Below are positions 22,647-62,818 of a stretch of DNA of 64,000 nucleotides, piece by piece; positions within the stretch are counted from its first letter, which is position 1, and each line of letters opens with the position of its first letter. The translations under genes were made by a program, and so were the position numbers. The notes below the pieces were generated by a model, which was given only the letters and a program-made list of their open reading frames with translations, had not been told where the DNA came from and ran no database searches. Source of the DNA: an uncultured Chloroflexia bacterium (GTDB lineage Bacteria; Chloroflexota; Anaerolineae; Anaerolineales; UBA4823); contig CAVVAJ010000001.1 of NCBI GenBank assembly GCA_963746255.1, positions 70,039 through 134,038 of the forward strand, in the 5' to 3' direction.

Positions 22647-22931
22647 GCTTGAGCTGCGCTGTAAATACGCAAATAGATTCAAGCATAAACAATAGTATAT
22701 ATCAAGACCGCACAACCCCACATAAAGCGGACCGAGCTATACGCCCGGAGGGAACGCGGCGCAAAAGTCCAAGTTTGGTTCGGGTTATTGAAGCGTTCGG
22801 GGCCAACCCGTCCCGCCGGTGAAACCCCCGTTGGGCGGCTGTCCAGCTTTTATTTTTCTGTTATTTTGCGAATTGATTTTTTTAACGAGTAAGACGGCGC
22901 ATTTAGTCATTGTGACACTAAAGGGAAAGCA

Positions 22932-27531: not shown

Positions 27532-27628
27532 AGATCAGTTCCTCGGGCTGCCTAACGGTGCGGCGGAAGAGCTCACCCGCTGCCGGGCGGGCATTTAATG
27601 ATTATAGGTTAAGAACCAATAAAGGGAA

Positions 27629-37682: not shown

Positions 37683-38489
37683 ATGACAGTCGAAGGTGCC
37701 ACAAAAGTCAGTTCAACAAGCGAAATGGATCGCAATTACAGGGGGCTGCGGCGCTTCAATCTCATCATGGGATTCCTGCACCTAATCCAGGGTGTTTTCA
37801 TGATCCTGGTCAGCAATGACACCACATACCCCATCTTTACCAATTACCTGAACTTCGATCCTGCCACCCGCTCGTTGATACCGAACTCACAACTATTCTA
37901 TGAACTACCTTTTGGCCCGGCGGTGGCGATGTTCTTGCTCATCTCCGCCGTGGCACACTTCTATCTGGCAACTATTGGCTATGGTCGCTATGTGGAAAAC
38001 TTGAAGAAAGGCATGAATCCAGTCCGCTTTTATGAATATGCTCTCAGCTCTTCGCTGATGATTGTGCTGATTGGCATGCTGATTGGGCTTTGGGATCTGG
38101 GAGCCATCATCCTGATCTTCACGCTCAATGCCACGATGAATCTATTTGGCATTATGATGGAGTTGCATAACCAACACACCCAAAAGGTAAACTGGACAGC
38201 ATTCATTTACGGCTGTATTGCCGGGTTCGTCCCGTGGGTGGTCATCATGCTGTACTTTGTGGGTGCGGTTAACTCCGGCGATGCCAAGCCACCAGATTTT
38301 GTGTACGCCATTGTTCCGACACTGTTTGTTTTCTTCAACATTTTCGCGATCAACATGGTTTTGCAATACAAAAAAGTGGGCCCTTGGAAGGATTACCTGT
38401 TTGGCGAACGTGTCTACATTATTCTGAGCCTTTCAGCCAAATCCGTTCTGTGTTGGCTGATCTGGACTGGTACGCTCGCACCAGTCTAA
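37683..38489 (+). CDS. Heliorhodopsin.
   Basis: Collinear with heliorhodopsin 48C12. GFLHLIQG (His23 context), SAVAHFYLA (His80), RFYEYALSSSLMIVLIG (Glu107 counterion), GERVYIILSLSAKSVLCWLIWTGTLAPV (retinal Lys). Confidence 0.9.
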   Translation: MTVEGATKVSSTSEMDRNYRGLRRFNLIMGFLHLIQGVFMILVSNDTTYPIFTNYLNFDPATRSLIPNSQLFYELPFGPAVAMFLLISAVAHFYLATIGYGRYVENLKKGMNPVRFYEYALSSSLMIVLIGMLIGLWDLGAIILIFTLNATMNLFGIMMELHNQHTQKVNWTAFIYGCIAGFVPWVVIMLYFVGAVNSGDAKPPDFVYAIVPTLFVFFNIFAINMVLQYKKVGPWKDYLFGERVYIILSLSAKSVLCWLIWTGTLAPV

Positions 38490-38955: not shown

Positions 38956-39087
38956 GGCAAACAAAGCGTGCACTGGACGCTGGGGATTCTACGGCACTTA
39001 CGATAAGCATTTTTCTGGCTTTGAGTTTTTTCTGCTCCCAAAAAATAGTTCCACCCGCCCCAGCGCCAGTAACACAAATCGTTGGGC
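38956..39087 (+). mobile_element. attC-like recombination site (132 nt).
   Basis: Starts 6 nt after the stop codon. Ends are GGCAAAC...GTTGGGC. Arm GCGTGCACTGGACGCTGGGG pairs with CCCCAGCGCCAGTAACAC, leaving unpaired bases on the 5' arm. Confidence 0.6.
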
Positions 39088-39173
39088 GGCTAAGTTTCAA
39101 CTAGCGTTTAACGCCATTATCCACTTACCGCATCGAAATGCTGTGCAATGGTTGATTTTTCAGCAGGATCGAC

Positions 39174-39776
39174 ATGAGAGAACGTCCACAGCCGAAGGTA
39201 TGGACGAAAAGAACGTACAACGGCCTCGCCAAATACTACGATTTGTTCATGAGGGTCTCTTTCCCTATTGGGGAAAAGGGAATAGAGAGAATTGTTGAGC
39301 GATTGAGCTCCGGTTCGGTACTGGATGTTGCTTGTGGTACAGGGACGCTTCTGAACTTGGCACACAAAAAGGGTTTGGAATGCAATGGTATCGACAATTC
39401 TCAAGGGATGCTCAACCAAGCGAGAGACAAGGTACCGAGTGCTGAATTGATCAGGGCAAGTTACTGCGAAATACCATATCAGGATGGACGGTTTGACTAT
39501 GTTGTGGCAACCAATGCTCTAAGCGGGACCTGCATAGATGCGACACGTGTGATCTCAGAGATGACAAGAGTGTGTAAGAGCGGTGGTGGAATCTTCATAG
39601 CGGAGTGGCCCAAAGCGGTGACAGAAACCTTGATAGAACGACTTATGGTGTGGCTGGCAAGTCTGAGCGAAGATGCTCCCAAGGATTACCAGGCGATTTT
39701 CGCAGGATTGGGATACGAGCCAGAAGTAGAGGTTCTTAGCAAAAGGTACAGCATTTTCGGAATAGAGAAGCAGTAG
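39174..39776 (+). CDS. Class I SAM-dependent methyltransferase.
   Basis: VLDVACGTGTLLNLA motif I. Methyltransf_11-like. Confidence 0.8.
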   Translation: MRERPQPKVWTKRTYNGLAKYYDLFMRVSFPIGEKGIERIVERLSSGSVLDVACGTGTLLNLAHKKGLECNGIDNSQGMLNQARDKVPSAELIRASYCEIPYQDGRFDYVVATNALSGTCIDATRVISEMTRVCKSGGGIFIAEWPKAVTETLIERLMVWLASLSEDAPKDYQAIFAGLGYEPEVEVLSKRYSIFGIEKQ

Positions 39777-39821
39777 GACTGAGATAGTGGTCAAATAGTC
39801 CGTATTTGCTCAAACATGGCT

Positions 39822-39945
39822 GCCCAACACAGCGTGCAGCGGATGGTGGAGAGGTTGGCGAGCAATCGTGCTCTCTGCGCCCCGGTCGGATTGGGGCGCA
39901 GCGGCTTCCCTGTCCACCCACCGCCGCTAATGAAAGCCGTTGAGC
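39822..39945 (+). mobile_element. attC-like recombination site (124 nt).
   Basis: GCCCAAC...GTTGAGC termini. The 5' arm AGCGTGCAGCGGATGGTGGA pairs imperfectly with TCCACCCACCGCCGCTAAT. Confidence 0.55.
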
Positions 39946-41226: not shown

Positions 41227-42537
41227 TCAGCTCAAAAACACGGGGGTAAATTCAGGACTGCTAGAAGTCGATCTACTCATAGGACAATCCGAAACCAAAG
41301 GGATAGAGTGGGCTGTCCACGGAAAAACGACGTTGATGGCTGGTACACCCGATTTAACCAGTTTTGTGTAGAGTGCACGGGTATCTTTTGCGGGAACAGC
41401 GAAGTCTTGCTTCCCATGCAGGAGCAGCGTCGGCGGACAACCAGCAGCAACATGGGTGATAGGCGATGTTAGTTCATATGCATTAAGCGCATCCTGGGGA
41501 TGGCCGCCCAATAAGACATCCAACCGGCCAGCATCACGGAAATTCTTCTTGTATTCGGGATTTTCGCCGATATATATTGGGGGCAAACCTACCGTTTGTT
41601 GCAGATTCCAATGTTGATATACAGCCAGCAAGTCTGTGGGACCATAGTAGGAGATTACGCCGCACACGGATAGATCGGTACTTTTGAGTTCATCTGGAGT
41701 TAACTCAGGATGTTCAGGGGTATATCCAGCCAACAGGGCGATATACCCTCCTGCTGAACCACCCCCTAAAACAATTTTCTCAGGATTCACACCATAATGG
41801 GATGCATTAGCCTTCATCCAGGCAAGCGCGCGTTTGGCATCAGCGACCATGCCGTAGATATCCACTTCAGGGCAAAGGCGATACGATACATCCATCACGG
41901 TATGTCCCTGTGCTGCCAGGTGCCGGAAGAAGGGCCGTGTTCCTAGATCTTTATCAAACAAGTACCAGCTGCTTCCGTGAAAGTAGACAAAGGCCAAGCC
42001 GGAAACATCACCATTGGCCGGACGCCAGAGGTCGCAGAGCAGCTGCCGGTCCGTACCGGGAATGGTCCAGAACGGGACATCGCGCTCCCAGATAGGCTCC
42101 GGAGACGCTTTCATCTTCAAATACATTGACCAGCGCCGCTTGACCATATGCTTGGACTGCCCAGGAGGGATCTGGTCTGACCAGCCGGTACCAAAGGCTT
42201 TTTCAAAACCATCCTGAGCGCGAGTGCACGCCCAGACATACCAGACCATTGTAATTGCACCAATGATCCCCATCGGAACAGCACCGAGAGCACCATATAC
42301 CCACCCAAGGACAGCTCCTGCTGCACCTACAACAGCCCAAAACGGAGACAAAGATACTGCCAATAGTTTTGGAAGCAAAACAATCCACCCAAAAGGAAAC
42401 TTCGATTTTATTACCAGCAGACCACTCATCAGCAGTGCGAAACCTGAAAGGGTGTAAGCTAGAATAATCATGATTCCCTCCAAAATCGTTATCAGAGAAA
42501 CGCCCGTATCCTCAGTCCAAGCATTACTCACAAACAT
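41227..42537 (-). CDS. Membrane-anchored alpha/beta hydrolase (esterase/lipase, HSL-like), paralogue A. Its last ~35 codons are replaced by unrelated sequence.
   Basis: N-terminal TM bundle. YFHGSSW and GGGSAGG motifs. The C-terminus diverges from paralogues B and C after FPWTAH. Confidence 0.75.
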   Translation of the reverse strand: MFVSNAWTEDTGVSLITILEGIMIILAYTLSGFALLMSGLLVIKSKFPFGWIVLLPKLLAVSLSPFWAVVGAAGAVLGWVYGALGAVPMGIIGAITMVWYVWACTRAQDGFEKAFGTGWSDQIPPGQSKHMVKRRWSMYLKMKASPEPIWERDVPFWTIPGTDRQLLCDLWRPANGDVSGLAFVYFHGSSWYLFDKDLGTRPFFRHLAAQGHTVMDVSYRLCPEVDIYGMVADAKRALAWMKANASHYGVNPEKIVLGGGSAGGYIALLAGYTPEHPELTPDELKSTDLSVCGVISYYGPTDLLAVYQHWNLQQTVGLPPIYIGENPEYKKNFRDAGRLDVLLGGHPQDALNAYELTSPITHVAAGCPPTLLLHGKQDFAVPAKDTRALYTKLVKSGVPAINVVFPWTAHSIPLVSDCPMSRSTSSSPEFTPVFLS

Positions 42538-42547
42538 TGATCACATA

Positions 42548-43843
42548 TCAATCCTTGTTTACCAATAGTGCCAAAAATCGATCCACATCGTACAATGCCG
42601 ACTGGGAGGCCGGGTTTATCTGCGGTAAAAGCAAGTCAAACCCATGGGGTGTCCACGGAAAAACGACGTTAATGGCTGGTACACCGGATTCAAGGAGTTT
42701 GGTGTAGAGTGCACAGGTGGCGTCCTGGGAAGTAACGTGGTCTTGTGCCCCTTGCAAAAGCAGCGTGGGCGGGCAACCAGGATGAACATGGCTGATGGGT
42801 GAGGCTAATTGATACATGTGTGGTGCGTCCTGGGGCCAGCCGCCCAACAAGATATCGAAACGGGCTGCGTAACGCATTCTTTTGGAAGGAGCAATCACTG
42901 TTCCAAGAGGTACTGGGGGCTCGCCTTCCAATTTTTGTAGTTTCATATATTCAAATAAGAACAGCAAGTCTGTTGGCCCGTAGTGGGAGATGACACCGCA
43001 CACGGATAGATCGGCACTTGTGAGGTCCTCTGGTGTTAACTCAGGATGTTGAGGTGCGTAGCCTGCCAATAGGGCAAGATGTCCACCTGCAGAACCGCCC
43101 CCTAAAACGATCTTTTCAGGGTTCACACCATAACGGGATGCATTGGATTTCATCCAGGCAACCGCTCGTTTGACGTCCCCGATCATGCCATAAATATCAA
43201 CTTCGGGACAAAGGCGATACGATACATCCATCACGGTATGTCCCTGTGCTACCAGGTGTTGAAAGAAAAGCCTTGTATACATATCTTTATCCCCGATAGC
43301 CCAGGCGCTTCCATGCAGGTAGATGTATGCCAGGCCGGTAGTATTGCCACCTGCCGGGCGCCAGAGGTCGCAAAGCAGCTGACGGTCCGTACCGGGAATG
43401 GTCGAGAATGGGACATCGCGCTCCCAGGAAGGCTCCGGAGAGGCTTTCATCTTCAAAAATACTGGCCAGCGCTTCTGAACCATTTGCTTGATTTGGTGAG
43501 GCGCTATCTGGTCTGACCAGCCAGCACCAAAGGCATTATCAAAACCGTCGTGATCCCGAGTGCATCGCCAGACATACCAGCTCATCATGCCCGCACCAAA
43601 GATCCCCATTGGAACAGCCCAGAGAGCGCCATATCCCCACCCAAGGACAGCTCCAGCTGCGCCCAGGATTGCCCAGACTGGCGACAATGCTCCTGCGATC
43701 AGCTTTGGCATCCAAACGATCCATCCTAAGCTACTCTTTGCATAAATCAAGAGCAGAACACTCATTAGAAGGGATAAACCTGAGAGGATGGTTGCCAAAA
43801 TAATCATGTTGCCCTCCAAAATCGTTATCAGAGAAACGCCCAA
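42548..43843 (-). CDS. Membrane-anchored alpha/beta hydrolase, paralogue B (intact).
   Basis: 431-aa ORF. YLHGSAW and GGGSAGG. Confidence 0.8.
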   Translation of the reverse strand: MGVSLITILEGNMIILATILSGLSLLMSVLLLIYAKSSLGWIVWMPKLIAGALSPVWAILGAAGAVLGWGYGALWAVPMGIFGAGMMSWYVWRCTRDHDGFDNAFGAGWSDQIAPHQIKQMVQKRWPVFLKMKASPEPSWERDVPFSTIPGTDRQLLCDLWRPAGGNTTGLAYIYLHGSAWAIGDKDMYTRLFFQHLVAQGHTVMDVSYRLCPEVDIYGMIGDVKRAVAWMKSNASRYGVNPEKIVLGGGSAGGHLALLAGYAPQHPELTPEDLTSADLSVCGVISHYGPTDLLFLFEYMKLQKLEGEPPVPLGTVIAPSKRMRYAARFDILLGGWPQDAPHMYQLASPISHVHPGCPPTLLLQGAQDHVTSQDATCALYTKLLESGVPAINVVFPWTPHGFDLLLPQINPASQSALYDVDRFLALLVNKD

Positions 43844-43884
43844 CAGTGTGTGTTGCTGGCGGCGGGATCGTTAGTGCTGATGCT

Positions 43885-44782
43885 TCAGTTGTCGTTCAGG
43901 AAATCGAGCACTCGCGCATCGACGATTCGATACTGGCTGCCGCACATGTTGTGACTGGACTGTGGCACCAGATCCCCTTCGAAAATCGGGAAGGAGCGCC
44001 CGCGCCCGGGCCAATGCCTTTGCTGGGTCATAGATGACCTCGCGGTCGCCAATGAGCAGCAGCACGGGTACATGCACTGCGCGCAGTTCGTCATCAGAGA
44101 ACACACTGGGCATGATACGCGCTGTCTCGGGCGGAAATCGAAAATGCTTCATACCGAGATAGAACAAGTCAAGTAAGCGCCGAGAAACCGTGTCACCGGG
44201 CGTATCTTTGATTCCCATCCATCCCATGAATGAGTCCGCTGTGAGGCGTGTTGGGAAGAGCGTCATCAGCATCACGCGCAGCATGAACTGTTTGACAATC
44301 GGCAGGAAGCTGGCTCCCGGTGATAGCAGCACAAGTTTTCGAACGCGCGCCGGCTCTACCATAGTGAAGTGGAGGGCCAGCCACCCACCGTAGGACATGC
44401 CCACCAGAGAGATGCGGTCCAGGTTCAGCCCGTCCAAGGTCTCGCGCAACCAGGCGACGAAGTCTCCCGCTTCGCGTATCGGTTCATCGGGATTGGGGAT
44501 GCTCTTGCCTGGTTGACCCATCACATCGATGGCATACACCCGGTAGTCCTTGCTGAAATCGGCGACATTGGGTGACCACATATTCAAAGTCATCGCCATT
44601 CCGTGCAAGAGTACCAACGGTGGGGCATCTTTCGGACCAGTGACGACGACATGCGTGGTCCCAAACCGACTTGGGATCTCTACTTCTTCATACGGAACCG
44701 GCCATAACTTCATGGCGGCGTCATACGCCGCGAGATACGCAGCTTCACCTTCGGGAGTCTTGAAAGCAGATATGTGAGTCAT
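43885..44782 (-). CDS. Alpha/beta-fold hydrolase of a different subfamily. A 1-nt indel in a CCC run near 43990 affects the frame.
   Basis: LVLLHGMAMT and LVGMSYGGWLAL. The natural C-terminus ...SSHNM...VDARVLDFLNDN* is in ORF 43885..44106. Confidence 0.75.
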
Positions 44783-44785
44783 TGT

Positions 44786-46046
44786 TTATCCTTTGTTTAA
44801 CAATAGTGCCAGAAATCGATCCACATCGTACAGTGCCGACTGGGCTGCCGGGTTTATTTGTGGAAGCAGCAAGTCAAAGGCGTGCTCTGTCCACGGAAAA
44901 ACGACGTCGATGGCCGGTACGCCTGATTCAACCAGTTTTGCGTAGAGCTCCTGGTTGCCCTCCACGGGATTAAGGCAGTCTCTGTCCCCTCGCAGGCTCA
45001 GCGTGGGCGGGGAACCAGGATGAACATGGGTGGTTGGGCAGGCCAATCGATACATGTCAGGTACGTCTTCGGGATAACCGCCCAACAGGATATCCAACCG
45101 GCCAGCATAAAGCATTGGATTTTTGGGATCGGCTTTTGTGCCAAGGGGCACTGGGGGCTTGCGCTCGTTGTTATATCGTTTAGCGCCAGCCACCAGGTCT
45201 GTGGGAGGGTAGTAGGTGACCATGCCGCACACGGACAGGTCGGCACCTTTGAGTTCCTGCGGTGTTAACTCAGGATGCTCAGGCGTATAGCCTGCCAACA
45301 GGGCGATATGTGCCCCTGCAGAACCGCCTCCTAAAACGATCTTTTCAGGGTCCACCCCATAACGGTCTGCATTGGCTTTCATCCAGGCAACCGCGCGTTT
45401 GGCGTCTCCGACCATGCCGTAGATATCCACTTCGGGAATAAGGCGATAGGCAACATCCATCACCGTATGTCCCTGTGCTACCAGGTGTTGAAAGAAAGGC
45501 CTTGTGTACATATCTTTATCCCCGATAGCCCAGGCGCTTCCGTGCAGGTAGATGTATGCCAGGCCGGTAGTTTTGCCATCGGCTGGACGCCAGAGGTCAC
45601 AGAGCAGCTGACGGTCCGTACCGGGAATGGTCCAGAAAGGGATATCGCGCTCCCAGATAGGCTCTGGAGAGGCTTTCATCTTCAAATATCATGACCAACG
45701 CTTTTTGACCATAAGCCTGGCTTGCTCTGGCGTTATTTGCTCTGCCCAGCCGGCACCAAACGCATTTTCAAAACCGTTGTGATCCCGGGTGCACCCCCAG
45801 ACATACAAGATCATCAGTAACAGCACCAAGGATCCCCATGAGCACGGCCCAGGGAGCGCCATACACCCAGCCAAGAAGAGCGCCAACTGCGCCCATGATC
45901 GCCCAAATCGGTGATAATGCGCCTGCGGTCAGAGGTAAAAATAATACGAGCAGCAGCGAAACCTTAGGTTTAATGAGGAACAAGACACTCATTAGAAATG
46001 ATAGACTTGAGAGTGTGGTTGCTAGAATAATCATGATTATCTCCAA
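44786..46046 (-). pseudogene. Membrane-anchored alpha/beta hydrolase, paralogue C. The N-terminal TM region is split over three frames.
   Basis: ORFs 44786..45685, 45689..45886 and 45768..46046 are collinear with paralogue B. Confidence 0.7.
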
Positions 46047-46171
46047 AAATTGTTATTTGAGTAACGTACAACGGATAAGCTCACCCAACGGGTGCTTTTG
46101 CGATCGAGACTTGCCGGTCGTAGCCAACTGCGCTGTCCCATGCGCCGCGATTTGTCCCAAGCGAGCCCTGG

Positions 46172-46552
46172 TCAGCGTGCAGTGGGGGTTGGGCGCAACC
46201 CACCCTTTGTACTTCCTATATGGATACCCAGATGCAAGAAACGGATGGCTACCCAGCACGCCGGGTAGAAGAGCGGGATAAGACATCCCACACCTACCAG
46301 CGTTCCATACTCCCTCCACCATGAGGAAGCCTCCAACCAGGGATACGTACTACCCCGGAGGGAAAGGAAAACTACCAGCGCTTGCACGATCAGCCCGATG
46401 ACAGTACAAGACGACAACATGATCAACGGCTCAGCCCAAGTAATCGTGCCTGCTGAAACCTGTTGATGGAGCTCAACTTTTGAATTAGGGGATGTTTTTT
46501 CGGGAGCGTTCATGGTCATACTCCTTTCTGTGGGCACGTGCTGCGTCATCAT
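46172..46552 (-). pseudogene. Fragment of a membrane protein (possibly the N-terminus of a CPBP-like protein), frameshifted and truncated.
   Basis: ORFs 46172..46552 and 46053..46322. Weak pattern only. Confidence 0.25.
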
Positions 46553-51780: not shown

Positions 51781-51969
51781 TCATGTCCATATTTTCCATG
51801 CCGTGTTACTGTGGTTGCAGCCGGTTGCAGCAGGATCACTAATCCGCGGCATGAAGTAAGGAGAACAGGCTTGTGTCCAGTTCCGAGTTGGTAAGGTAAA
51901 GGATGTATCCCCGAAATAACCGCATGGGTAGGCGTGTGGTTCATAACTACGGCGGGTTGAAGATTGCAA
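51781..51969 (-). pseudogene. Degenerate relic related to the ComM/YifB-like fragment at 62.5-62.7 kb.
   Basis: SYEPHAYPCGYFGDT... A 17-nt identity (51933-51949) with 62722-62738. Confidence 0.4.
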
Positions 51970-52039: not shown

Positions 52040-52110
52040 AACCAACATTTGCAAATCGCGCCGCATACCCCGAGGGCGATAGCCCCGTCTGCGTTTACAC
52101 GGGGTTGGGC
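52040..52110 (-). mobile_element. Possible short attC-like site.
   Basis: Minus strand reads GCCCAAC...GTTGGTT with partial arm pairing (TGTAAACGC / GCGATTTGCA). Confidence 0.3.
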
Positions 52111-52218
52111 CGCATCACACTCAATAATTATTGTAATTTTCGAATTCGCGTGAAGCACCTGCTCGTAATCTCACAAATGAAATGTTATTGTGGTTTTCGA
52201 AGGGTTAATTATTTACAC

Positions 52219-52659
52219 TTACCTTGAACTTAATCTGGCCAGTAACGCATCCGACCAGGGACTTAACAATGCAACCAGGATGATGATATCTACCACTACT
52301 GCAGATACCTTCGACATAATTCCCGGCGTAAAGGTATTCCACCATGGAATGACGGCTAGCAAAGACAGAATCGATGCGATTATTGCAATCGACGGCCACC
52401 AAGATTGGTTTGCTATCAATCTGACCGCCGCAGTAAAAAATCCGATCATGGCTAACAGCCAAAAGATACCAAAAACCTTACCAAGAGCTGATTGAATGAA
52501 TACACCATTGGAAAACATCCATGGCAATTTGTTGAATGAAGGTTCGGAAAAAGGTTGCCAATTCGTCCAGGTTCCCACAAAACCCATTATGTGCCCGATG
52601 CCATGACCAACCAGGATGATGGCAATTATGATGCGAAGAATCATCAATTTTCTCCTCAC
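52219..52659 (-). CDS. Hypothetical 4-TM membrane protein.
   Basis: 146-aa hydrophobic ORF. Starts about 50 nt after an attC-like core site. Confidence 0.6.
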   Translation of the reverse strand: MRRKLMILRIIIAIILVGHGIGHIMGFVGTWTNWQPFSEPSFNKLPWMFSNGVFIQSALGKVFGIFWLLAMIGFFTAAVRLIANQSWWPSIAIIASILSLLAVIPWWNTFTPGIMSKVSAVVVDIIILVALLSPWSDALLARLSSR

Positions 52660-52710
52660 TTCTCAATTTACTTTAATTTATATGAAATTTGTGCGCGATA
52701 TTTTGAGGCT

Positions 52711-52809
52711 GCCTAACGTTCCGCTTCAGCCGCGGGCTTCGCTGGCGCGGACCTTTCCCAAGCAAGGGCCGTGACAGGGAGAACCGTCTGCTGCAAACAG
52801 TGGTTAGGC
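52711..52809 (-). mobile_element. attC-like recombination site (99 nt, top strand minus).
   Basis: GCCTAAC...GTTAGGC on both strands. The TAA stop of 52804..53532 lies inside GCCTAAC. Confidence 0.45.
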
Positions 52810-53532
52810 TGAAGCCAGCTCAATTACATTGGTACCATCATAAAACAAAATGCATTTATCATACGTGGTTCTAAATAAATTAGTGAATATTCCTTCATCC
52901 AAATCGGAATATGAAGCTACATTGTCACCTCGTATCTCAATAATTAAAACAAGTTCATCACACTCGTACTTATCTGGTGGGACTTTGAGATCCTTTCGAG
53001 AGATTTCATCTTGAATATGTTTTGAATTAATCATTGGAACCCATCCTGATGTGATTGGTTTGCATGAATGACTTGTTATTACGGGAGAACGCATAAGCTT
53101 AACGATTCGAACTTGAGATGAATATGGAATATCTATAGAGAGGACTTCAGAGATCGGTATCCTTTCATCATTCTGTATCACAGTTTGAATAATTTCTTCA
53201 GCTAAAGATGGCAATATTTTTTTCGAAAGGGGATTGTTACGAAAGTGAAGGAATATTTTGGTTGGAATGAAAGCAATATGTGTTAATTTGCTCTCAACAA
53301 GATTACATAATTTATTTCTAAGCCCCTCCTGCTCCACCCACAAAACTCCATCATGGTCATGTGTTTGATAATATGTTGTCAGTTCAATTCCAATTTTGAT
53401 CCCTTCTGGTGTTGTCAGTATAAAATCTGGTGGATCTTCGTCTACAATATCTCCAGTGGGGAATTTGCTCCATATTTCTTTAACTTTCGAAAGAACTTGT
53501 TTTTCGCGTTCTTTTTTATGTACTTGATTCAT
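52804..53532 (-). CDS. Hypothetical protein (242 aa), low GC. Weak PD-(D/E)xK-like motif.
   Basis: DPPDFILTTPEGIKIGIELT. Otherwise no family recognised. Confidence 0.5.
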   Translation of the reverse strand: MNQVHKKEREKQVLSKVKEIWSKFPTGDIVDEDPPDFILTTPEGIKIGIELTTYYQTHDHDGVLWVEQEGLRNKLCNLVESKLTHIAFIPTKIFLHFRNNPLSKKILPSLAEEIIQTVIQNDERIPISEVLSIDIPYSSQVRIVKLMRSPVITSHSCKPITSGWVPMINSKHIQDEISRKDLKVPPDKYECDELVLIIEIRGDNVASYSDLDEGIFTNLFRTTYDKCILFYDGTNVIELASA

Positions 53533-53610
53533 AATTCACTTTTCTTGCTGGCGAACCAGCCCAACTCGTGATCCGAACGCCTTAGGCACACTAGAACTTA
53601 TAGATTCCAG

Positions 53611-53802
53611 TCAGCCCAAAATATTTAGGCCGCCAAAGATTAACAAAACCGCCCACGCAAACAGTTGCATGAGCGGCTCCAATGTTATTCTATGATTGCC
53701 ACGCACCCGCCTGCGTGTGCCATAACGGACATACCAATAGCACAGCCCGTTTTTGTTGTTATTCAAAGTATAGATGATATTTTCAATCCTCACAAGTAAC
53801 AT
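53611..53802 (-). CDS. Small tail-anchored protein (63 aa) inside duplicated unit A.
   Basis: C-terminal TM LFAWAVLLIFGGLNILG. Copy B carries a premature stop. Confidence 0.35.
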   Translation of the reverse strand: MLLVRIENIIYTLNNNKNGLCYWYVRYGTRRRVRGNHRITLEPLMQLFAWAVLLIFGGLNILG

Positions 53803-53825
53803 TCCTCCAATTCATCAAGTCGTCA

Positions 53826-54107
53826 TTAGAATGTCACATCCCCATCAATTGACTCCCACTTATCCTCATCCCACGACTGCTCTACAGGCAGCGGCCACAA
53901 TCGCATCATCTCCATCTGGGGGCAAGTTATAACCAATGTATTCACAGGTTGAGCGGGTGGGGTGTAATATTGCAACTCGCAATTACCAGGGAGATGCATC
54001 GCTGTAATGCCTTCTGCGACATGGAACGTCCTTTGGGCCATTACAGGGTAGGCCTGCAGGAAGGTGAGTAAAGCGATGACAAGTACTAAAATAACTGCAT
54101 CCCACAA
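53826..54107 (-). CDS. Small secreted protein (93 aa, two Cys) inside duplicated unit A.
   Basis: Signal-like N-terminus ...LQAYPVMAQ. TTG start. Conserved in copy B. Confidence 0.5.
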   Translation of the reverse strand: MWDAVILVLVIALLTFLQAYPVMAQRTFHVAEGITAMHLPGNCELQYYTPPAQPVNTLVITCPQMEMMRLWPLPVEQSWDEDKWESIDGDVTF

Positions 54108-54347
54108 GTCGGGTGCACGCTATGTTAGGCGGCTCTCACCTGCATAGCCAAGCCGTACAATCCTTTCAACTGTCGGGCAACAGTGAGCGAAATGAGCTGA
54201 ACCGTGAATGACCAGTTAGGCGTAGTGCTGCGTAGCATCGTAACCTTAGGTATTTTGGGAGAGCATATGAAAAGCGATAGCAGTCCCAATAAAAATTAGG
54301 TTTATTCGTGCTCAACAAGTATAAAATTTGTGTTTGCCAATGCAGAA

Positions 54348-55251
54348 TTATATAAGCTTACCGGCGATTTGAACTGTTTTTTCGTCTTTGCATAAATCCA
54401 GGCTGATGTTCCATAATTTATCTTGCAGTTTTTTGTCAGTCGCGTAGTCATCTTGTTTCATCTCGGTAAACTTATTGTTTTTCCAGGTGATAAATTTTCC
54501 AGATTTCTTCAGAACTCTCTTCCTGGCTTTCTGTGAACAAAGGGGACATGATCGTTCCGCATTCCTCAATGGAAATAAATGTGCCGAAAAGTTTCATCAT
54601 CGTTGCCATTGTTTTCATGAAAAATGGAATAATATTGATTTGATTAGTCCACACAGTTTTTGAGATTTCAAATCCAATGAAAGACACTCTTGAGTCATTT
54701 GTTTTCTTATAAATATTATGCATGCGATCGCAAAACATTCTTTTAGCAACCATTGCCTGATGGATACCATCTTCATAACCCCATTTTTTCTTCATCTGCA
54801 TGTCATCCCAAAATATTTCGCCCCCCTCAGTGACGTTGAAGATCACCCTGCCTCCAAATTCGGATTTCTCCAATAGATCCAACAAGTTCAAAGTCAACAT
54901 GAATTGAGACAAATAATTGACCTGGAAATGTGGATCCAATCCATCTTCGGTTTCTATACGTTTCGCAGCGTAACCCAAGCCGGCATTGACGAATAAGCCG
55001 TCTAGAAACTCATGTTGACTATGAATCTCCTTGATTGCATTTCGAACTTCACTGAGTTTAGTGAGATCACATAAAACCATGGATATCTTATTGTTTTTAG
55101 TAGTGGCTTCAAGTTCTTTGATCGTAGCTTCACCACGTTCTTTGGATCTGCACAGTATGATGATTTCATGAAGTTGATCGTCAATTCCAGCTAAAACTTG
55201 TGCAACTCCTTTCCCCATTCCATTGGTGCCTCCCGTTACTAATACTTTCAT
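54348..55251 (-). CDS. SDR-family oxidoreductase. Frameshift near 54480-54560.
   Basis: VTGGTNGMGKG. The C-terminus continues in ORF 54348..54569 (SGKFITWKNNKFTEM...LWNISLDLC). Confidence 0.75.
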
Positions 55252-55407
55252 GTTGCAATCTCCTCTGCTGCGTTTCTTTTTATGCTATGTGTGCCTACTG
55301 GACCTCCGACTCCGCCCAAGTTGGAGTTGGGGGACATGTAGCGACTAGTGTAATCTGATGTCAGTATGGACATATGTTACCTCAAAATCTTTTACATAAT
55401 CAAAATG

Positions 55408-55532
55408 GCCTAACGAGCTATTCAGCGGCTTGGCGTTTTGGCTCCGATTGAATTTTACACCCAATCCAAACTTAGATTTTAGCGCCGCTTATCACCTTGG
55501 CGTAGCCAAGTCGGCTGCAATTTGGGTTGGGC
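55408..55532 (-). mobile_element. attC-like recombination site (125 nt, top strand minus).
   Basis: Minus strand reads GCCCAAC (6 nt after the stop) ... GTTAGGC. Arm ATTGCAGCCGACTTGGC pairs with GCCAAGCCGCTGAAT, leaving an unpaired A. Confidence 0.55.
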
Positions 55533-55538
55533 CGCCCG

Positions 55539-56297
55539 TTATCTACCAAAACCAGCCTTCTTGAACACATAAATCGACCACCCAATTGTCTCCCGCCCCC
55601 ACCTCAAGTAGTTCTCCCGATTCTCCCCTACTCGCTTCAACACCTCTCCCACGTCAGGATCGTCCGGATGCTCACTTGCCCACTCCGTCGCCGCATACCA
55701 CTGCAATCCCTCATATCTGTCCCAATCATCCTGGTTGCTTACCAACGTGTAGACCAGCTCTAGCCCGAGCTTTTGTCCTGCCTCCACATTCTCGTAGTGC
55801 GTCCCAAACGTGCTCCGTTCTTCTCCGATGGCTTCCAAATACTCTGCTACTGGTTCTTGTCGCCAGTATGGTTCCCCCACGACCACCCAGCTTCCGAGGG
55901 CTGCCATCTCGTTCAGCGCCTTGAGTGTTCCTTCGTGGCTGCCATAGATCCAGCTCGCTCCAATGCAGGCTACTAGATCAAAACTCTCCGGCTCCTCCAC
56001 CTCATAATCCGCCCCATCCATTTCCAAGAACGTCAACTGAGCATCTGGAACACGTTCTTTATACTTTTCCTCGGCATCCGAAACACAGTACGGCGAGAGA
56101 TCGATCCCTATTCCTCCAATCTTATACCGTTCCGCCAGCCGGATGATGAACTCACCCTTACCCATGGCAATCTCAAGCACTTGTGCTCCAGGCTTCAACC
56201 GCAGCAGAGCAATGAGTTCCTCAAATTTCTCAACACTCATCGGGTTACAGAGAACGTGTTCCCGATGTGTTATATCAAAATACTTCCATCGGTCCAT
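55539..56297 (-). CDS. Class I SAM-dependent methyltransferase.
   Basis: RBS caggagg. MDRWKYFDITH...VLEIAMGKGEFIIRLAE. Paralogue of 27013..27531. Confidence 0.85.
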   Translation of the reverse strand: MDRWKYFDITHREHVLCNPMSVEKFEELIALLRLKPGAQVLEIAMGKGEFIIRLAERYKIGGIGIDLSPYCVSDAEEKYKERVPDAQLTFLEMDGADYEVEEPESFDLVACIGASWIYGSHEGTLKALNEMAALGSWVVVGEPYWRQEPVAEYLEAIGEERSTFGTHYENVEAGQKLGLELVYTLVSNQDDWDRYEGLQWYAATEWASEHPDDPDVGEVLKRVGENRENYLRWGRETIGWSIYVFKKAGFGR

Positions 56298-56327
56298 CTT
56301 CAACCTCCTGTCAAATGGGCGGCCCAA

Positions 56328-56943
56328 CTCGTGATTAGAACGCCTTAGGCACACTAGAACTTATAGATTCCAGTCAGCCTAAAATATTTAGGCCGCCAAA
56401 GATTAACAAAACCGCCCACACAAACAGCTACATGAGCGGCTCCAACGTTATTCTATGGTTGCCACGCACCCGCCTGCGTGTGCCATAACGGACAGACCAA
56501 TAGCATAGCCCGTTTTTGTTGTTAGTCAAAGTATAGATGAAATTATCAATCCCCACAAGCGACATACCTCCAATTCATCAACACGTCTTCAGAATGTTAC
56601 ATCCCCATTAATTGACTTCCACTTATCCTCATCCCACGACTGCCGCACAGGCAGCGGCCACAATCGCATCATCTCCATCCCAGGGCAAGTTAGCACCAAC
56701 GTATTCACGGGTTGAGCGGGCGGGGTGTAATATTGCAACTCGCAATTGCCAGGGAGGTGCATCGCTGTTATGCCTTCTGCGACATGGAACGTCCTTTGGG
56801 CCATTACAGGGTAGGCCTGCAGGAAGGTGAGTAAAGCGATGACAAGTACTAAGATAACCGCATCCCACAAGTCGGGTGCACGCTATGTTAGGCGGCTCTC
56901 ACCTGCATAGCCAAGCCGTACAATCCTTTCAACTGTCGGGCAA
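56328..56943 (-). repeat. 616-nt duplicated unit, copy B.
   Basis: See 53565..54180. Confidence 0.85.
56589..56870 (-). CDS. Small secreted protein (93 aa), copy B.
   Basis: 88 of 93 residues identical to 53826..54107. Confidence 0.5.
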   Translation of the reverse strand: MWDAVILVLVIALLTFLQAYPVMAQRTFHVAEGITAMHLPGNCELQYYTPPAQPVNTLVLTCPGMEMMRLWPLPVRQSWDEDKWKSINGDVTF

Positions 56944-57355
56944 CAGCTACAGCTCAAGAAGCAATTAGAGCCGAACAAGAGGCACTTGAGAAAAGGTATG
57001 AGAACCTATATTCAACGGCTAAAGATCAAGGCATAAATATTATCAAATCTTCCGACTTGATTACCAACGACTCCAGTGTAGTTAAATTTCATTATTCAGA
57101 AAAGATGTTTAATTTAATGAAAGTAAGTAGACCCGGGATTCCACGTCGCAATAATTATACTTATATTTTCATCCAAACAGGTGATAATGTTGGGTGGGAC
57201 TTGCTTAAGTTTTGTGTTGTTTTCACCATTTTCGATAATTTTTTAGCGATCAATTTCATGTATCGTTTCAGAGCCCGTGAGACAGATTTAGAGGGAAAAA
57301 GAATGGAGACTTCTTAGCCAAGGAACTCAGGTAAGATAAACAGAAGGAGACCAAA

Positions 57356-57475
57356 ATGGCTAAGAAGAAAGAGAGTGTAGAACAAACAGTCCGCAATATT
57401 CGGAGGAAAACGCGCAAGCAGTATTCGTCCGAGGAGAAGATCCGCATAGTCTTAGAGGGCTTGAGAGGGGAGAGG
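57356..57475 (+). mobile_element. N-terminal fragment of an IS3-family transposase OrfA.
   Basis: MAKKKESVEQTVRNIRRKTRKQYSSEEKIRIVLEGLRGE, then unrelated sequence. Confidence 0.65.
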
Positions 57476-57773
57476 GGTATATATGCTATAATATTTCTCG
57501 TGAAAGAAAAACCGGACCGTGGAGCCAGTGGGACTGGTTTTAACAAGCCCGGAACGGCACACGCAGAAGGGTGCGTGAATGTCCTAGAAATGGTACTGAT
57601 ACGCTATTCCATCCCAGATTTTTTCCGGTATGCTTTTTATAACGGCTCTTTGATAAGCAATTATTTTTTGGATAATAGCGGAGGTTTGGAGGATAGAAAA
57701 ATATCTGTTTGGTAAGTCATGTGTCGGATGATAATGAATTGAATTGCCAATTCGATTTGTGGAGGAGTCGAAA

Positions 57774-60686: not shown

Positions 60687-60808
60687 ACCAAACCCCGCGT
60701 TAACCTGACCTGCTGCGCAGCGAGAACCGGCGCGGCAAAATGCAATCCTTGGCACTGAATAAACAGCTTTCGGAGCTAAAACGCAGGCAGGTTACGCCCT
60801 CGTTAGGC
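60687..60808 (+). mobile_element. attC-like recombination site (122 nt).
   Basis: ACCAAAC...GTTAGGC. Arm GCGTTAACCTGACCTGCTGCG pairs with CGCAGGCAGGTTACGC, leaving three unpaired bases on the 5' arm. Confidence 0.5.
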
Positions 60809-60899
60809 TGCAATAGCACAAGCGAATATTAATAATTTCAGAACTGCAGGAGGATACACCATTGGGAACGTGGATTAGTCATCGAAATGGGAGTGCATT

Positions 60900-61655
60900 A
60901 TGCCGGGAGTAGAAGGACGGGTGGCGTTGGTAACGGGTGCTGGACGTGGAATTGGGCGGGTGGCGGCTGATCTGCTGGCCTCACGCGGTGCTCGGGTGAT
61001 GGCCGTTGCGCGCAGCGAGAATGAATTGCAGACGCTGGGCCTGGACTACGTTGTGGCGGATCTGGGTACACATGACGGCTGTACACTTGCGGTGGAGGAA
61101 ACACAGGATCGCCTGGGGCCGGTTGCAGTCCTGGTGTGCAATCACGGTATTGGTTCGGCCCATGAGCGGGTGATCTGGGAGCAGGAGCCGGAGGTCTGGC
61201 GCGAAACAATGCGCATCAACCTAGATGGTCCTTATTACCTGTCACAGCTAGTTGTCAAAGACATGATTGAACAGGGTTATGGACGGCTTGTGTTCACGAG
61301 TTCGACAGCCGGACAGGTGGCGGAATACGCCGGCAGCGCTTACAACAGTTCAAAACACGGTCTTCTGGGCCTGATGCGCTCGGTTGCCCAGGATGCTGGG
61401 CCGCATGGCGTGACTTCCAACGCGGTGCTGCCCGGCTGGGTGCGAACACAAATGGCTGAGACTTCGGCCAAAGTCGAAGCCGAGCAGCGTTGTATCACCC
61501 CGGACGAGGTGTGGGCGGAAAGGGCTGCGCTTTACCCGGTGGGCCGGGTGGTGACACCCGAAGAAGTGGCCGAGGTGATCGCCTTCCTGGCATCCGAAGA
61601 ATCCAGTGGCGTCAACGGGGAGGCCATAACCGTAGCCCTTGGAAGCATATGGTGA
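60900..61655 (+). CDS. SDR-family oxidoreductase (FabG-like).
   Basis: VTGAGRGIG and YNSSKHG. RBS gggag. Confidence 0.85.
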   Translation: MPGVEGRVALVTGAGRGIGRVAADLLASRGARVMAVARSENELQTLGLDYVVADLGTHDGCTLAVEETQDRLGPVAVLVCNHGIGSAHERVIWEQEPEVWRETMRINLDGPYYLSQLVVKDMIEQGYGRLVFTSSTAGQVAEYAGSAYNSSKHGLLGLMRSVAQDAGPHGVTSNAVLPGWVRTQMAETSAKVEAEQRCITPDEVWAERAALYPVGRVVTPEEVAEVIAFLASEESSGVNGEAITVALGSIW

Positions 61656-61777
61656 AAATGAAATCGGCGGACGGGTGGATGGACCATGAAAAAAACCTTG
61701 GTTTTCTAGTCGGGGGATGCAGTTCGCGTAAGTTTTGGGTTTGTTTATTTGTTGCACACTTTTACAACCAAAATGCC

Positions 61778-61908
61778 GCCTAACATCGCGTGCACCCGAC
61801 AGGTGGGATTCGCCCCGCCAAAAAGAGTTGCTTCTGTACTTGAAGGTTTTCCGTCAAAGCAGTCCCTTTCCCGTCCCGCCCACCTGCGGGTAACGCAAAC
61901 CGTTAGGC
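61778..61908 (+). mobile_element. attC-like recombination site (131 nt), the best example.
   Basis: GCCTAAC...GTTAGGC. Arm GCGTGCACCCGACAGGTGGG pairs with CCCACCTGCGGGTAACGC, with a GC/A mismatch-bulge and an unpaired A on the 5' arm. Confidence 0.65.
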
Positions 61909-61983
61909 AACCAAGTGGTGTAGGTGAAATTCGTTTGAAAATGGCGCACAGTCAATAAGCACTAATCTGCTGAAGGAGATAAA

Positions 61984-62148
61984 ATGGGGCTGTCACTCAC
62001 ATCGGCGGTTATTGGTTTTGGGATGGTAATATTCGGTGTAATACTTCTAATCATTCGGAAGCAGCGAATATTTGCCATGTTGTTTCTGATCGTAGGCTTC
62101 GTGTTGATTGTAGTACCTTATAGTTTGATTTATTTCTTTCTGGATTGA
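61984..62148 (+). CDS. Small 2-TM membrane protein (54 aa, below the ORF-track cutoff).
   Basis: RBS aaggag 6 nt upstream. MGLSLTSAVIGFGMVIFGVILLIIRKQRIFAMLFLIVGFVLIVVPYSLIYFFLD*. Confidence 0.5.
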   Translation: MGLSLTSAVIGFGMVIFGVILLIIRKQRIFAMLFLIVGFVLIVVPYSLIYFFLD

Positions 62149-62432
62149 GTAGTAGTGCGAGCTGTAGGGAATGTTTCCCCTGGAAAATAGTCGGTTTGGG
62201 AGCTGTTTACAAGTTCAAAGATACGGGTATGGGATGTAACAGGATTGGTTTAAGGATCGAGACGATGCCTCAAAGAAATTGCATCGCGTGGCTTGAAGCA
62301 ATAGTTTGACTGATTCGTATGATACGAATGGACGAGAGCAGAGTCCTAGAGTAATCTTCACCTTTGTGCACAAGTTTGTCTTTCAGGGTTTATTCAATTT
62401 TGAAAGCGAAGGTTTTGGTCAGTGTAAAGGTT

Positions 62433-62475
62433 GCCTAACATAGCGTGCACCTGACGCTGGGGATTCTGCGGCGTT
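62433..62475 (+). mobile_element. 5' half of an attC-like site of the same family. The 3' arm is absent.
   Basis: GCCTAACATAGCGTGCACCTGACGCTGGGGATTC, then unrelated sequence. Confidence 0.45.
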
Positions 62476-62488
62476 TTTGGGCTTTTCT

Positions 62489-62725
62489 CTACGCCTTAGC
62501 CTTTTTCTGTTCGGACGGCTCTTCAACGCGCTTTTGGATGGCAATTGAAGGTTCTCCCAATCGATCTTCGCGCAGCTTGTCACAGTCCACACGCGGCACT
62601 TCGACATGGATATCGATACGGTCTAACAATGGTCCAGAGATGCGTTTTTGGTAGCGGGTGATGACCGTGTTTGAACAGGTGCACGGCTTTGCTGTGTCGC
62701 CGTAATAGCCGCAGGGACAGACGTG
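62489..62725 (-). pseudogene. Internal fragment of a ComM/YifB-family (Mg-chelatase-like) ATPase gene.
   Basis: CPCGYYGDTAKPCTCSNTVITRYQKRISGPLLDRIDIHVEVPRV...GEPS. Both the N- and C-terminal parts are missing. Confidence 0.7.
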
Positions 62726-62818
62726 TGGTTCATAACTATGGCAAATAGGCATTATGGAGAATGTCGACAAATGGCACAGGGTTTTGACATTTCACGTGAA
62801 GGATGAACTCAAAGCATA

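Follow-up and report, generated by a model that had tools for sequence, protein, structure and literature searches.

The locus

The subject of this study is a segment at 52-57 kb of a 64,000-nucleotide (nt) stretch of contig CAVVAJ010000001.1 (positions 70,039 to 134,038) from an uncultured Chloroflexia bacterium of the order Anaerolineales; this whole stretch is referred to as the window in the following. Read on the minus strand, the segment begins with a duplicated unit (unit B, 56946-56322), which is followed by a methyltransferase gene, a 125-nt site, a short-chain dehydrogenase/reductase (SDR) gene and the other copy of the duplicated unit (unit A, 54183-53559). It continues with an open reading frame (ORF) of 242 amino acids (aa), a 99-nt site, a protein with four transmembrane segments (4-TM protein), a weaker site (52110-52040) and a ComM-like relic. 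This order and its coordinates had been given correctly in a preliminary description of the DNA. In the following, we argue that the segment is very probably a partly decayed chromosomal integron cassette array of the CALIN class, with no integrase gene in the window. CALINs are clusters of attC sites lacking an integron integrase. The features of the segment, all on the minus strand, are:

56894-56946, minus: start of unit B, the 53-nt 3' end of an ORF (...VARQLKGLYGLAMQVRAA*) with its TAA in the following GCCTAAC; the alignment of units A and B begins here
56861-56893, minus: attC stump of unit B, with R'' box GCCTAAC, spacer, L'' box TGCACCCGAC and the first stem bases; the 3' half is absent
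56589-56873, minus: small gene of unit B, joined to the attC stump; its product is a small protein, secreted or anchored in the membrane
56407-56588, minus: non-coding part of unit B with the hairpin CACACGCAGGCGGGTGCGTG; terminator-like stem and T-run at 56444-56407
56322-56406, minus: attI-like segment of unit B, TTAATCTTTGGCGGCCTAA ... TGGAATCTATAAG, 31 nt, GTTGGGC; the core 56328-56322 joins the methyltransferase cassette
55408-56328, minus: complete methyltransferase cassette, core to core; ORF 56297-55539 with the ribosome-binding site GGAGG
55532-55408, minus: attC site a, 125 nt, with R'' GCCCAAC, L'' TGCAGCCGAC, L' GCCGCTGAA and R' GTTAGGC
54184-55407, minus: SDR cassette remnant, with a 41-codon ORF (55373-55248) and SDR sequence in two frames (55251-54472, then 54569-54348)
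53559-54183, minus: duplicated unit A, with stump 54130-54098, gene 54110-53826, terminator-like sequence 53681-53644, attI-like segment from about 53643 to 53559 and core 53565-53559
52711-53565, minus: complete cassette of the 242-aa ORF (53532-52804), to which no function is assigned; its stop lies inside R''
52809-52711, minus: attC site b, 99 nt, with R'' GCCTAAC, L'' TGCAGCAGAC, L' GCGGCTGAA and R' GTTAGGC
52047-52717, minus: 4-TM protein cassette, ORF 52644-52219 (141 aa), with a truncated attC
52047-52110, minus: site c, the truncated attC of this cassette, in which R'' is followed by a degenerate L'' and the first part of the variable stem, L' and R' being absent
51904-51953, minus: ComM-like relic, 50 nt, 82% identical to a ComM/Mg-chelatase fragment at 62693-62742 (blastn)

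We propose that these features make up two short arrays, one behind the other on the minus strand. The first runs from unit B with its attI-like end through the methyltransferase cassette and attC site a to a frameshifted SDR gene without an attC; the second runs from unit A with its attI-like end through the 242-aa cassette and attC site b to the 4-TM cassette with its truncated attC, and on to the ComM relic. The preliminary description had spoken of single-gene units separated by attC-like sites; the duplicated units are not cassettes, and the SDR unit lacks an attC. It had also placed gene starts 20-60 nt after a GTTRRRY box. This holds for the methyltransferase (24 nt) and the 242-aa ORF (26 nt), not for the 4-TM ORF (66 nt) or the SDR gene, whose ATG lies 157 nt past its GTTAGGC; the 41-codon ORF begins 34 nt past the same GTTAGGC.

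An attC family of Anaerolineae and its members in the window

The sites of the window have the motif GCCYAAC, 6 nt, TGCA(S)C(N)GAC in common. As a 23-mer spanning R'' and L'' (GCCYAACAYNGCGTGCASCNGAY), it occurs five times in the window and in none of 100 shuffles. In a scan restricted to a single genome for each species, more than 119 loci had it, mostly in Anaerolineae and other Chloroflexota metagenome-assembled genomes, frequently three to five times per 8 kb on one strand, and the modal distance from the motif to the GTTRRRY box gives a modal element length of 130 nt. From other genomes we aligned 53 non-redundant attC sites (alignment A2) and tested them for canonical pairing, i.e. R'' with R', L'' with L' and a longer stem, with an unpaired top-strand C beside a mismatch and an unpaired top-strand A. 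Of the alignment cells, 92.6% were paired, compared with 80.6% in shuffles and 28-43% when the partners were slid against each other; double changes were found in 130 cells, compared with 47 in shuffles. Textbook attC sites have an extrahelical G and T in their bottom strand, and the two unpaired positions of the family correspond to these. Integron integrases are encoded in five of the family's loci, with 430-485 bits on TIGR02249 (cut-off 265). At L033, L023 and L036 (L numbers designate loci outside the window), the integrase is by its coordinates divergent from the attC motif, in the layout of a canonical integron, and relatives such as L049, L088 and L041 have arrays of many cassettes, the content of which is of unknown function. 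This attC family is real, canonical and linked to integron integrases in other genomes.

A covariance-model search for attC sites, as the preliminary description had suggested, was carried out with two models. R1 was built from the A2 sites alone, none of them from the window and some of them adjacent to integron integrase genes, and was run on the window with filters off up to E 10; R2 was built from metagenome attC sites and lists matches in the window up to E 1. Sites a and b are found on the minus strand by both models, and the duplicated units contain partial matches:

55532-55408, minus: site a, R1 23.7 bits (E 4e-4), R2 36.5 bits
52809-52711, minus: site b, R1 31.4 bits (E 5e-6), R2 44.2 bits (E 6e-9)
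stumps in units A and B, minus: R1 about 18 bits for the 5' part only, not listed by R2

On the reverse strand, R1 gives 5.9 bits for site b and does not list site a. Since these reverse-strand scores are near zero, the polarity of the sites is clear; as had been described, it matches the gene orientation, the top strand of the 52-57 kb run being the minus strand. The recombining bottom strand of sites a and b would be the plus strand. Both sites have pairing RYYYAAC and GTTRRRY boxes within the 50-150 nt span of attC sites, and their L''/L' stem with extrahelical bases is supported by the covariation of the family together with the scores on the minus strand only; site a aligns to the family structure with one non-standard pair, site b with a few. 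Site a extends from a GCCCAAC 6 nt past the methyltransferase TAA to GTTAGGC over 125 nt, and the TAA of the 242-aa ORF (52806-52804) lies within the GCCTAAC of the 99-nt site b, both as first described. ORFs running into attC sites are a familiar feature of cassettes. Recombination may still be possible at both sites.

The site at 52110-52040 had been described as a weaker one. It lacks the complete R''-L''...L'-R' structure, and its alignment to a subtype of the family (attC sites from L062, L073 and L014) covers no more than their first ~64 nt; it has no match in R1 (E<=10) or R2 (E<=1) and a fold z-score of -0.6, and the GTTGGTT at its end is probably fortuitous. Another candidate, at 46083-46194, came from a regular-expression scan and was rejected: R1 does not find it, and R2 finds it weakly (19.6 bits, E 0.007).

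It might be argued that the hairpins are ordinary intergenic palindromes, i.e. repetitive extragenic palindromic (REP)-like elements or intrinsic terminators, with RYYYAAC and GTTRRRY ends by chance and no link to integrons. Their position directly past stop codons resembles that of terminators, the fold z-scores of a and b are modest, and neither site c nor the candidate at 46083-46194 surpasses shuffles in folding. However, none of the three sites a, b and c is among the terminator-like sites of our scan (0/3), models derived from integrase-linked arrays elsewhere detect a and b strand-specifically, and the compensatory changes and conserved unpaired positions are those typical of attC. Given also that changes in gene content break exactly on the cores, as described below, we find this explanation extremely improbable.

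Cassettes and their boundaries

The 252-aa product of the methyltransferase cassette is a class I S-adenosylmethionine-dependent methyltransferase (Pfam Methyltransf_25), with which a metagenome scan retrieved 80 loci at 74-100% identity. In many of them, R1 finds attC sites immediately before and after the gene; when run with default filters on these loci, 31 of 31 matches were on the gene's strand. Homology to the window (blastn) begins precisely at 56328, the G of GTTGGGC, in 39 loci, and the 200 nt upstream of the cassette fall into 28 unrelated clusters among 34 loci. In L123, the stretch of 99.3% identity covers 922 nt; it begins with GTTGGGC, ends one base beyond the GTTAGGC at 55408 and lies between unrelated flanks. 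In L145, the cassette adjoins an intI fragment. The unit therefore shows what characterizes a gene cassette, namely varied contexts and boundaries at G|TT cores, and the flanking same-strand attC sites bear out the earlier suggestion that the methyltransferase family moves as a cassette.

The preliminary description had named breakpoints away from the core sites as one of two observations that would speak against integron cassettes. We find the breakpoints on the cores, at 56328 in the 39 loci, at 55407/8 in L123 and at the GTTAGGC of attC b in L205, in support of the cassette reading. L205 is 88% identical to window positions 52813-50494 and has the 4-TM cassette, the truncated site c, the ComM relic and a MalT-like gene in common with it. 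Near-perfect identity begins at the GTTAGGC of attC b, and upstream of this core L205 differs, with a 70-aa ORF and an attC body of its own.

A truncated methyltransferase paralogue at 27.5 kb had also been noticed for a GTTAGGC 20 nt ahead of it. This box is real and is preceded by an attC 3' remnant (CCCGCCCGGCAGCGGGTGAGC...CCGTTAGGC) at 27550-27600 on the minus strand. The paralogue, which is 36% identical to the cassette methyltransferase over 158 residues with matches concentrated at the N-terminus, looks like a cassette stranded far from any array. A defence role of the cassette methyltransferase, suggested by a PADLOC match to mad2 (E 7.8e-12), was discarded, as the match covers the generic methyltransferase domain only. 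Look-ups of the exact proteins returned no record for the methyltransferase or for the 242-aa protein of the window.

The loci fetched early in the analysis contained no gene closely related to the SDR, 242-aa or 4-TM genes. The SDR gene is identified by Pfam adh_short. Two overlapping ORFs, read by eye, suggest that it is a pseudogene split by a frameshift; Pfam found no SDR domain in the second ORF (54569-54348), R1 and R2 have no match in 54348-54184 and hence no attC between the SDR gene and unit A, and the viral_contigs scan gave no match for the SDR. For the 242-aa protein, there was no sequence match in Pfam, PADLOC or PDB, and an AlphaFold2 model from a three-sequence alignment had a mean pLDDT of 43.5, too low for a fold search. 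A homologue with 55% identity is found in L203, between two of the weaker model matches there (attC candidates with E 0.05 and 0.02) in an array with six same-strand attC model matches, three of them with E<0.001. The downstream candidate begins 5 nt before the end of the homologue, so that the stop again lies in R''. The array that includes this homologue also has a phage-defence system as a cassette, a cyclic-oligonucleotide-based anti-phage signalling system (CBASS) pair of CD-NTase and Cap15 at 2144-3888 of L203, behind which come an attC and no fewer than five further attC model matches.

The 4-TM protein has 44 homologues; in L206, the start of the 4-TM cassette directly follows an attI-like GTTGGGC. 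Past this cassette in the window, the ComM-like relic (51904-51953) has no Pfam match of its own. A larger ComM fragment at 62489-62770 on the minus strand matches Pfam Mg_chelatase (E 2.8e-15). This fragment abuts a truncated attC at 62.4 kb, such that both distal array ends of the window meet ComM-like debris on the same strand.

The duplicated units and their attI-like ends

Units A and B share 93.6% identity over 625 nt without a single indel, and in both the identity ends directly past GTTGGGC. The preliminary description had listed them among the cassettes. They are instead chimeras of an attC stump, a gene for a 96-aa protein, a terminator-like hairpin and an attI-like sequence of ~85 nt. 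The stump of unit B, 33 nt long, contains the 23-mer and gives a partial R1 match of 17.6 bits. The small protein has a hydrophobic N-terminus; it is 96 aa long in relatives, and the window copies lack the first two codons. It has 13 homologues with 48-90% identity (80-88% for the eight closest), and those retrieved start with M(D/E/K/N)DL. The homology begins at residue 3 in tblastn and at GACTTG, within the stump, in nucleotide comparisons with other contigs. Because gene and stump share the bases GACTTGxGGGAT where they join, the fusion would seem to be an illegitimate or microhomology junction. Of the differences between the two gene copies in the window, most are synonymous, and 5 of 93 residues are changed.

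In L120 and L121, the 96-aa gene is intact and preceded by a gene of 65-92 aa; synteny with the window beyond the unit is unsupported, with matches of 34% identity for the MalT-like and 25% for the LTD protein. The non-coding part of unit B has an RNA fold z-score of -3.0, and nhmmer found copies in L120, L121 and L206, as well as a partial, diverged third copy of the hairpin region (GGCACACGCAGAAGGGTGCGTG) at 57479-57589 on the plus strand of the window, upstream of a gene for a 442-aa repeat protein.

We rejected the idea that the units are group IIC-attC introns, since there is no Rfam group II match at E<=5 in 51.4-57.8 kb, and likewise an insertion of the group IIC-attC intron or IS1111-attC type, as the units contain no transposase and no attC 3' half at their end. 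At gathering thresholds, Rfam has no match in the whole window; at E<=5, 51.4-57.8 kb gives four weak, presumably chance matches (E 1-1.4; CRISPR-DR4, DicF, sR32).

The last ~85 nt of the units contain the blocks TTAAYCTWTGGCGGCCTA and TGGAATCTATAAG, which lie at an equal distance to the core in L109, L053 and L088. In L109, the counterpart is the 146-nt region from the intI start codon to the first cassette core; in L053 and L088, the counterparts are array heads. A profile built from these three loci also matches L116, L030, L019 and the intI-adjacent region of L033. Each of these seven loci has the motif ahead of its first attC, with both on one strand and no attC preceding the motif. The attI-like array heads of L053, L088, L030, L116 and L019 have no intI in the 1-5 kb of upstream sequence fetched. 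Moreover, four kinds of cassettes are joined at the GTTGGGC of the units: the methyltransferase, the 242-aa ORF, an FGE-sulfatase (L120) and the 4-TM gene (L206).

These similarities lend moderate support to the view that the unit ends are attI-like landing sites whose adjacent integrase was lost or never present, and the unit ends may have served as attI-type insertion points. The reference attI1 is a simple site beside intI, consisting of an L box, a short spacer and a GTTRRRY R box. The units resemble an attI in ending with a GTTGGGC at which varied cassettes join, and in having blocks at a spacing conserved with the 146-nt region of L109. They differ from it in that no intI is adjacent, a co-directional small-gene module and a terminator-like hairpin lying upstream instead, and in that the window has two tandem copies; the likeness is one of sequence.

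Two other explanations of the units have to be considered. They could be ordinary cassettes with an unusually long attC of ~270 nt rather than remnants of an attI platform, for each unit stops in GTTGGGC exactly where the next cassette starts, the 96-aa ORF ends in an R''-like ATGTAAC, and similar long elements flank a cassette-type gene in L206 (repeats of ~230 nt, with ends like those of the window units, on both sides of the 4-TM gene). We regard this as improbable: the plus strand of the 279-nt region folds no better than shuffles (DNA z -0.86), neither attC model exceeds 7.4 bits (E 3.7), the contig L121 is without any attC model match, also upstream of the two-gene module, and the last 85 nt have aligned counterparts in the intI-proximal region of L109 and in six array starts lacking an upstream attC.

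Alternatively, the units could stem from integrase-independent segmental duplication or unequal homologous recombination, so that the coincidence of their right end with a core would be secondary. The left boundary, CTG|TTGCCC, is indeed poor as a core site, the units have no foldable attC, and their 6.4% divergence without indels makes the duplication an old one. In addition, a truncated, 57-aa relative of the 96-aa protein (P0013), apparently encoded on the same contig, is probably a third copy outside the window. Against this stands the end of identity right past GTTGGGC in both copies and the three different cassettes that follow there, which recombination at the core predicts; in L120, only weak similarity goes on for ~16 nt past GTTGGGC. 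On balance, such a duplication is a somewhat unlikely origin of the units.

If the unit ends are attI-like landing sites, one may go further and see in the units an integrase-less platform, i.e. a duplicable attI-type site behind a two-gene module and terminator that would collect cassettes through an integrase acting in trans. We mention this with reserve, as it is rather unlikely to be correct.

Integrase and state of the array

In tblastn searches of the 64 kb with five integron integrases, nothing fell below E 0.01, and Pfam searches of the larger ORFs of the window revealed neither intI nor an intI pseudogene. The divergent intI adjacent to the cassettes of a complete integron is thus missing. 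Like a CALIN, the array has, on one strand, a pair of attC sites less than 4 kb from each other (a and b, separated by 2.6 kb), no integron integrase nearby by the tblastn search, an adjoining insertion sequence (IS) fragment and cassettes that are mostly without known function or not for resistance. It differs from a CALIN in being headed twice by an attI-like sequence, which is outside the CALIN definition, and in the truncation of three of its five attC-derived sequences. A promoter scan, considered for a Pc promoter into the cassettes, gave 12 promoter-like sites compared with 11.2 expected from shuffles, i.e. no excess.

The segment bears signs of both decay and recent movement. On the one hand, the SDR gene is frameshifted and without attC, an IS3-type fragment and a partial copy of the hairpin region of the units lie just upstream (57.3-57.6 kb), and the distal end is fixed in L205; on the other, sites a and b are complete, and elsewhere there are copies that hardly differ from the methyltransferase cassette. 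Truncation of sites, the frameshift, the IS fragment and the lack of an integrase suggest that the array is mostly fossil.

Following established integron biology, its cassettes would have moved as follows. The bottom strand of each attC, here the plus strand, would fold into a hairpin in which R'' would pair with R' and L'' with L', leaving two bases extrahelical. An integron integrase, from elsewhere in the genome or from outside, would cut the G|TT of the R' box, and the cassettes would leave as circles and re-insert preferentially at an attI-type site. Because no intI was found in the 64 kb, the present activity of the array is unproven.

A complete and active integron, with its integrase outside the window or elsewhere on the same 1.1-Mb contig and acting in trans, would account for the intact sites a and b, for a methyltransferase cassette that is 99-100% identical to copies in other metagenomes and so suggests recent movement, and for the further attC sites of the window at 38.9-39.9 kb and 60.7-62.5 kb. 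About half of the CALINs are also found in replicons that encode IntI (PMC4889954). Set against this, there is no intI within 64 kb, and the frameshifted gene, the truncated attC sites, the IS fragment and the distal end fixed in L205 fit a living array poorly; we consider it possible but on the whole doubtful.

A decayed CALIN-type array with attI-like heads is therefore the reading that we prefer. Several points weigh against it. Apart from the negative integrase searches, the segment has five attC-derived sequences of which only two, a and b, are complete, and these score 24-44 bits, compared with ~100 for typical sites of the family; their DNA hairpins are modestly above shuffles (z -2.1 for a and -1.7 for b). 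The attI profile finds the window at 56396-56358 (E 0.012) and 53634-53595 (E 0.1), in a 1.2-Mb search and thus with weak statistics, and five of the seven loci with the attI-like motif have no integrase in the stretch fetched. Lastly, this reading does not account for the duplication of units A and B.

Further attC sites and neighbouring features

Outside the segment, the models find the following sites and candidates in the window:

61778-61908, plus: attC, R1 100.8 bits, R2 77 bits; the best site in the window
38956-39087, plus: attC, R1 80.1 bits, R2 62.5 bits
39822-39945, plus: attC, R1 57 bits, R2 37.6 bits
62433-62539, plus: truncated attC, R1 35 bits, R2 29 bits
60687-60808, plus: attC, R1 21.8 bits, R2 36.5 bits
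46194-46066, minus: weak candidate, not detected by R1, R2 19.6 bits (E 0.007)
22710-22836, plus: weak candidate, not detected by R1, R2 18 bits (E 0.017)

At 38956-39945 on the plus strand, there is a second complete cassette, with a 200-aa methyltransferase (39174-39776) between attC sites of 80 and 57 bits; it lies directly downstream of a heliorhodopsin gene (37683-38489) and a glycosyltransferase-like ORF. A third short array (60687-62539, plus) is in the opposite orientation to the 52-57 kb run and comprises the attC at 60687-60808, a FabG-like SDR (60900-61655), the attC at 61778-61908, a 54-aa transmembrane ORF and a last attC that is truncated after ~93 nt (62433-62525).

Next to the segment, an N-terminal fragment resembling the orfA of IS3-family transposases (MAKKKESVEQ...) was recognized by eye at 57285-57470 on the plus strand, together with an upstream end; it has no Pfam match, and its end sequence also closes the contig L120 (4378-4468). 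In L206 (regions 1-5070 and 7560-8790, which also include the repeats of ~230 nt), two group II intron reverse-transcriptase genes lie near an attC array. Finally, 41227-45685 on the minus strand of the window holds four consecutive alpha/beta-hydrolase genes, three of which are BD-FAE-type paralogues.

Relation to known integrons and significance

Among sedentary chromosomal integrons, the Vibrio cholerae superintegron has homogeneous attC sites, the Vibrio cholerae repeats (VCR) of ~125 nt. The attC family described here is similar in that it is lineage-specific and of conserved sequence and length (~130 nt), and in that relatives have arrays of many cassettes. The window itself differs from the superintegron: it holds short fragments only and no integrase, its attC sites are heterogeneous, with a and b diverging from the 130-nt consensus, and they are found on both strands and in several places of the 64 kb.

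CALINs are common, and integrons have been reported in Chloroflexi (PMC4889954); the origin of CALINs has been proposed to lie in the loss of intI or in rearrangement (Cury et al., 2016, IntegronFinder, PMC4889954). With both CALINs and Chloroflexi integrons already described, our findings are less ordinary in two respects: integrase-less attI-like heads occur in tandem, and the 130-nt attC family of Anaerolineae is well defined. The segment offers an example outside Proteobacteria, in which cassette arrays of a Chloroflexota-type chromosome can be followed at single-nucleotide resolution, and one of its cassettes, the methyltransferase, circulates in at least 28 contexts in environmental metagenomes. 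As the 130-nt attC family is lineage-typical, it could help to assign cassettes to Anaerolineae hosts.

The CALIN literature leaves open how integrase-less arrays arise and keep gaining cassettes. If confirmed, attI-like heads without a nearby integrase would help to explain both their origin and their continued gain of cassettes. Should, moreover, the tentative platform reading of the units prove true, attI-like heads without intI would be a recurrent arrangement in Anaerolineae rather than the outcome of simple decay.

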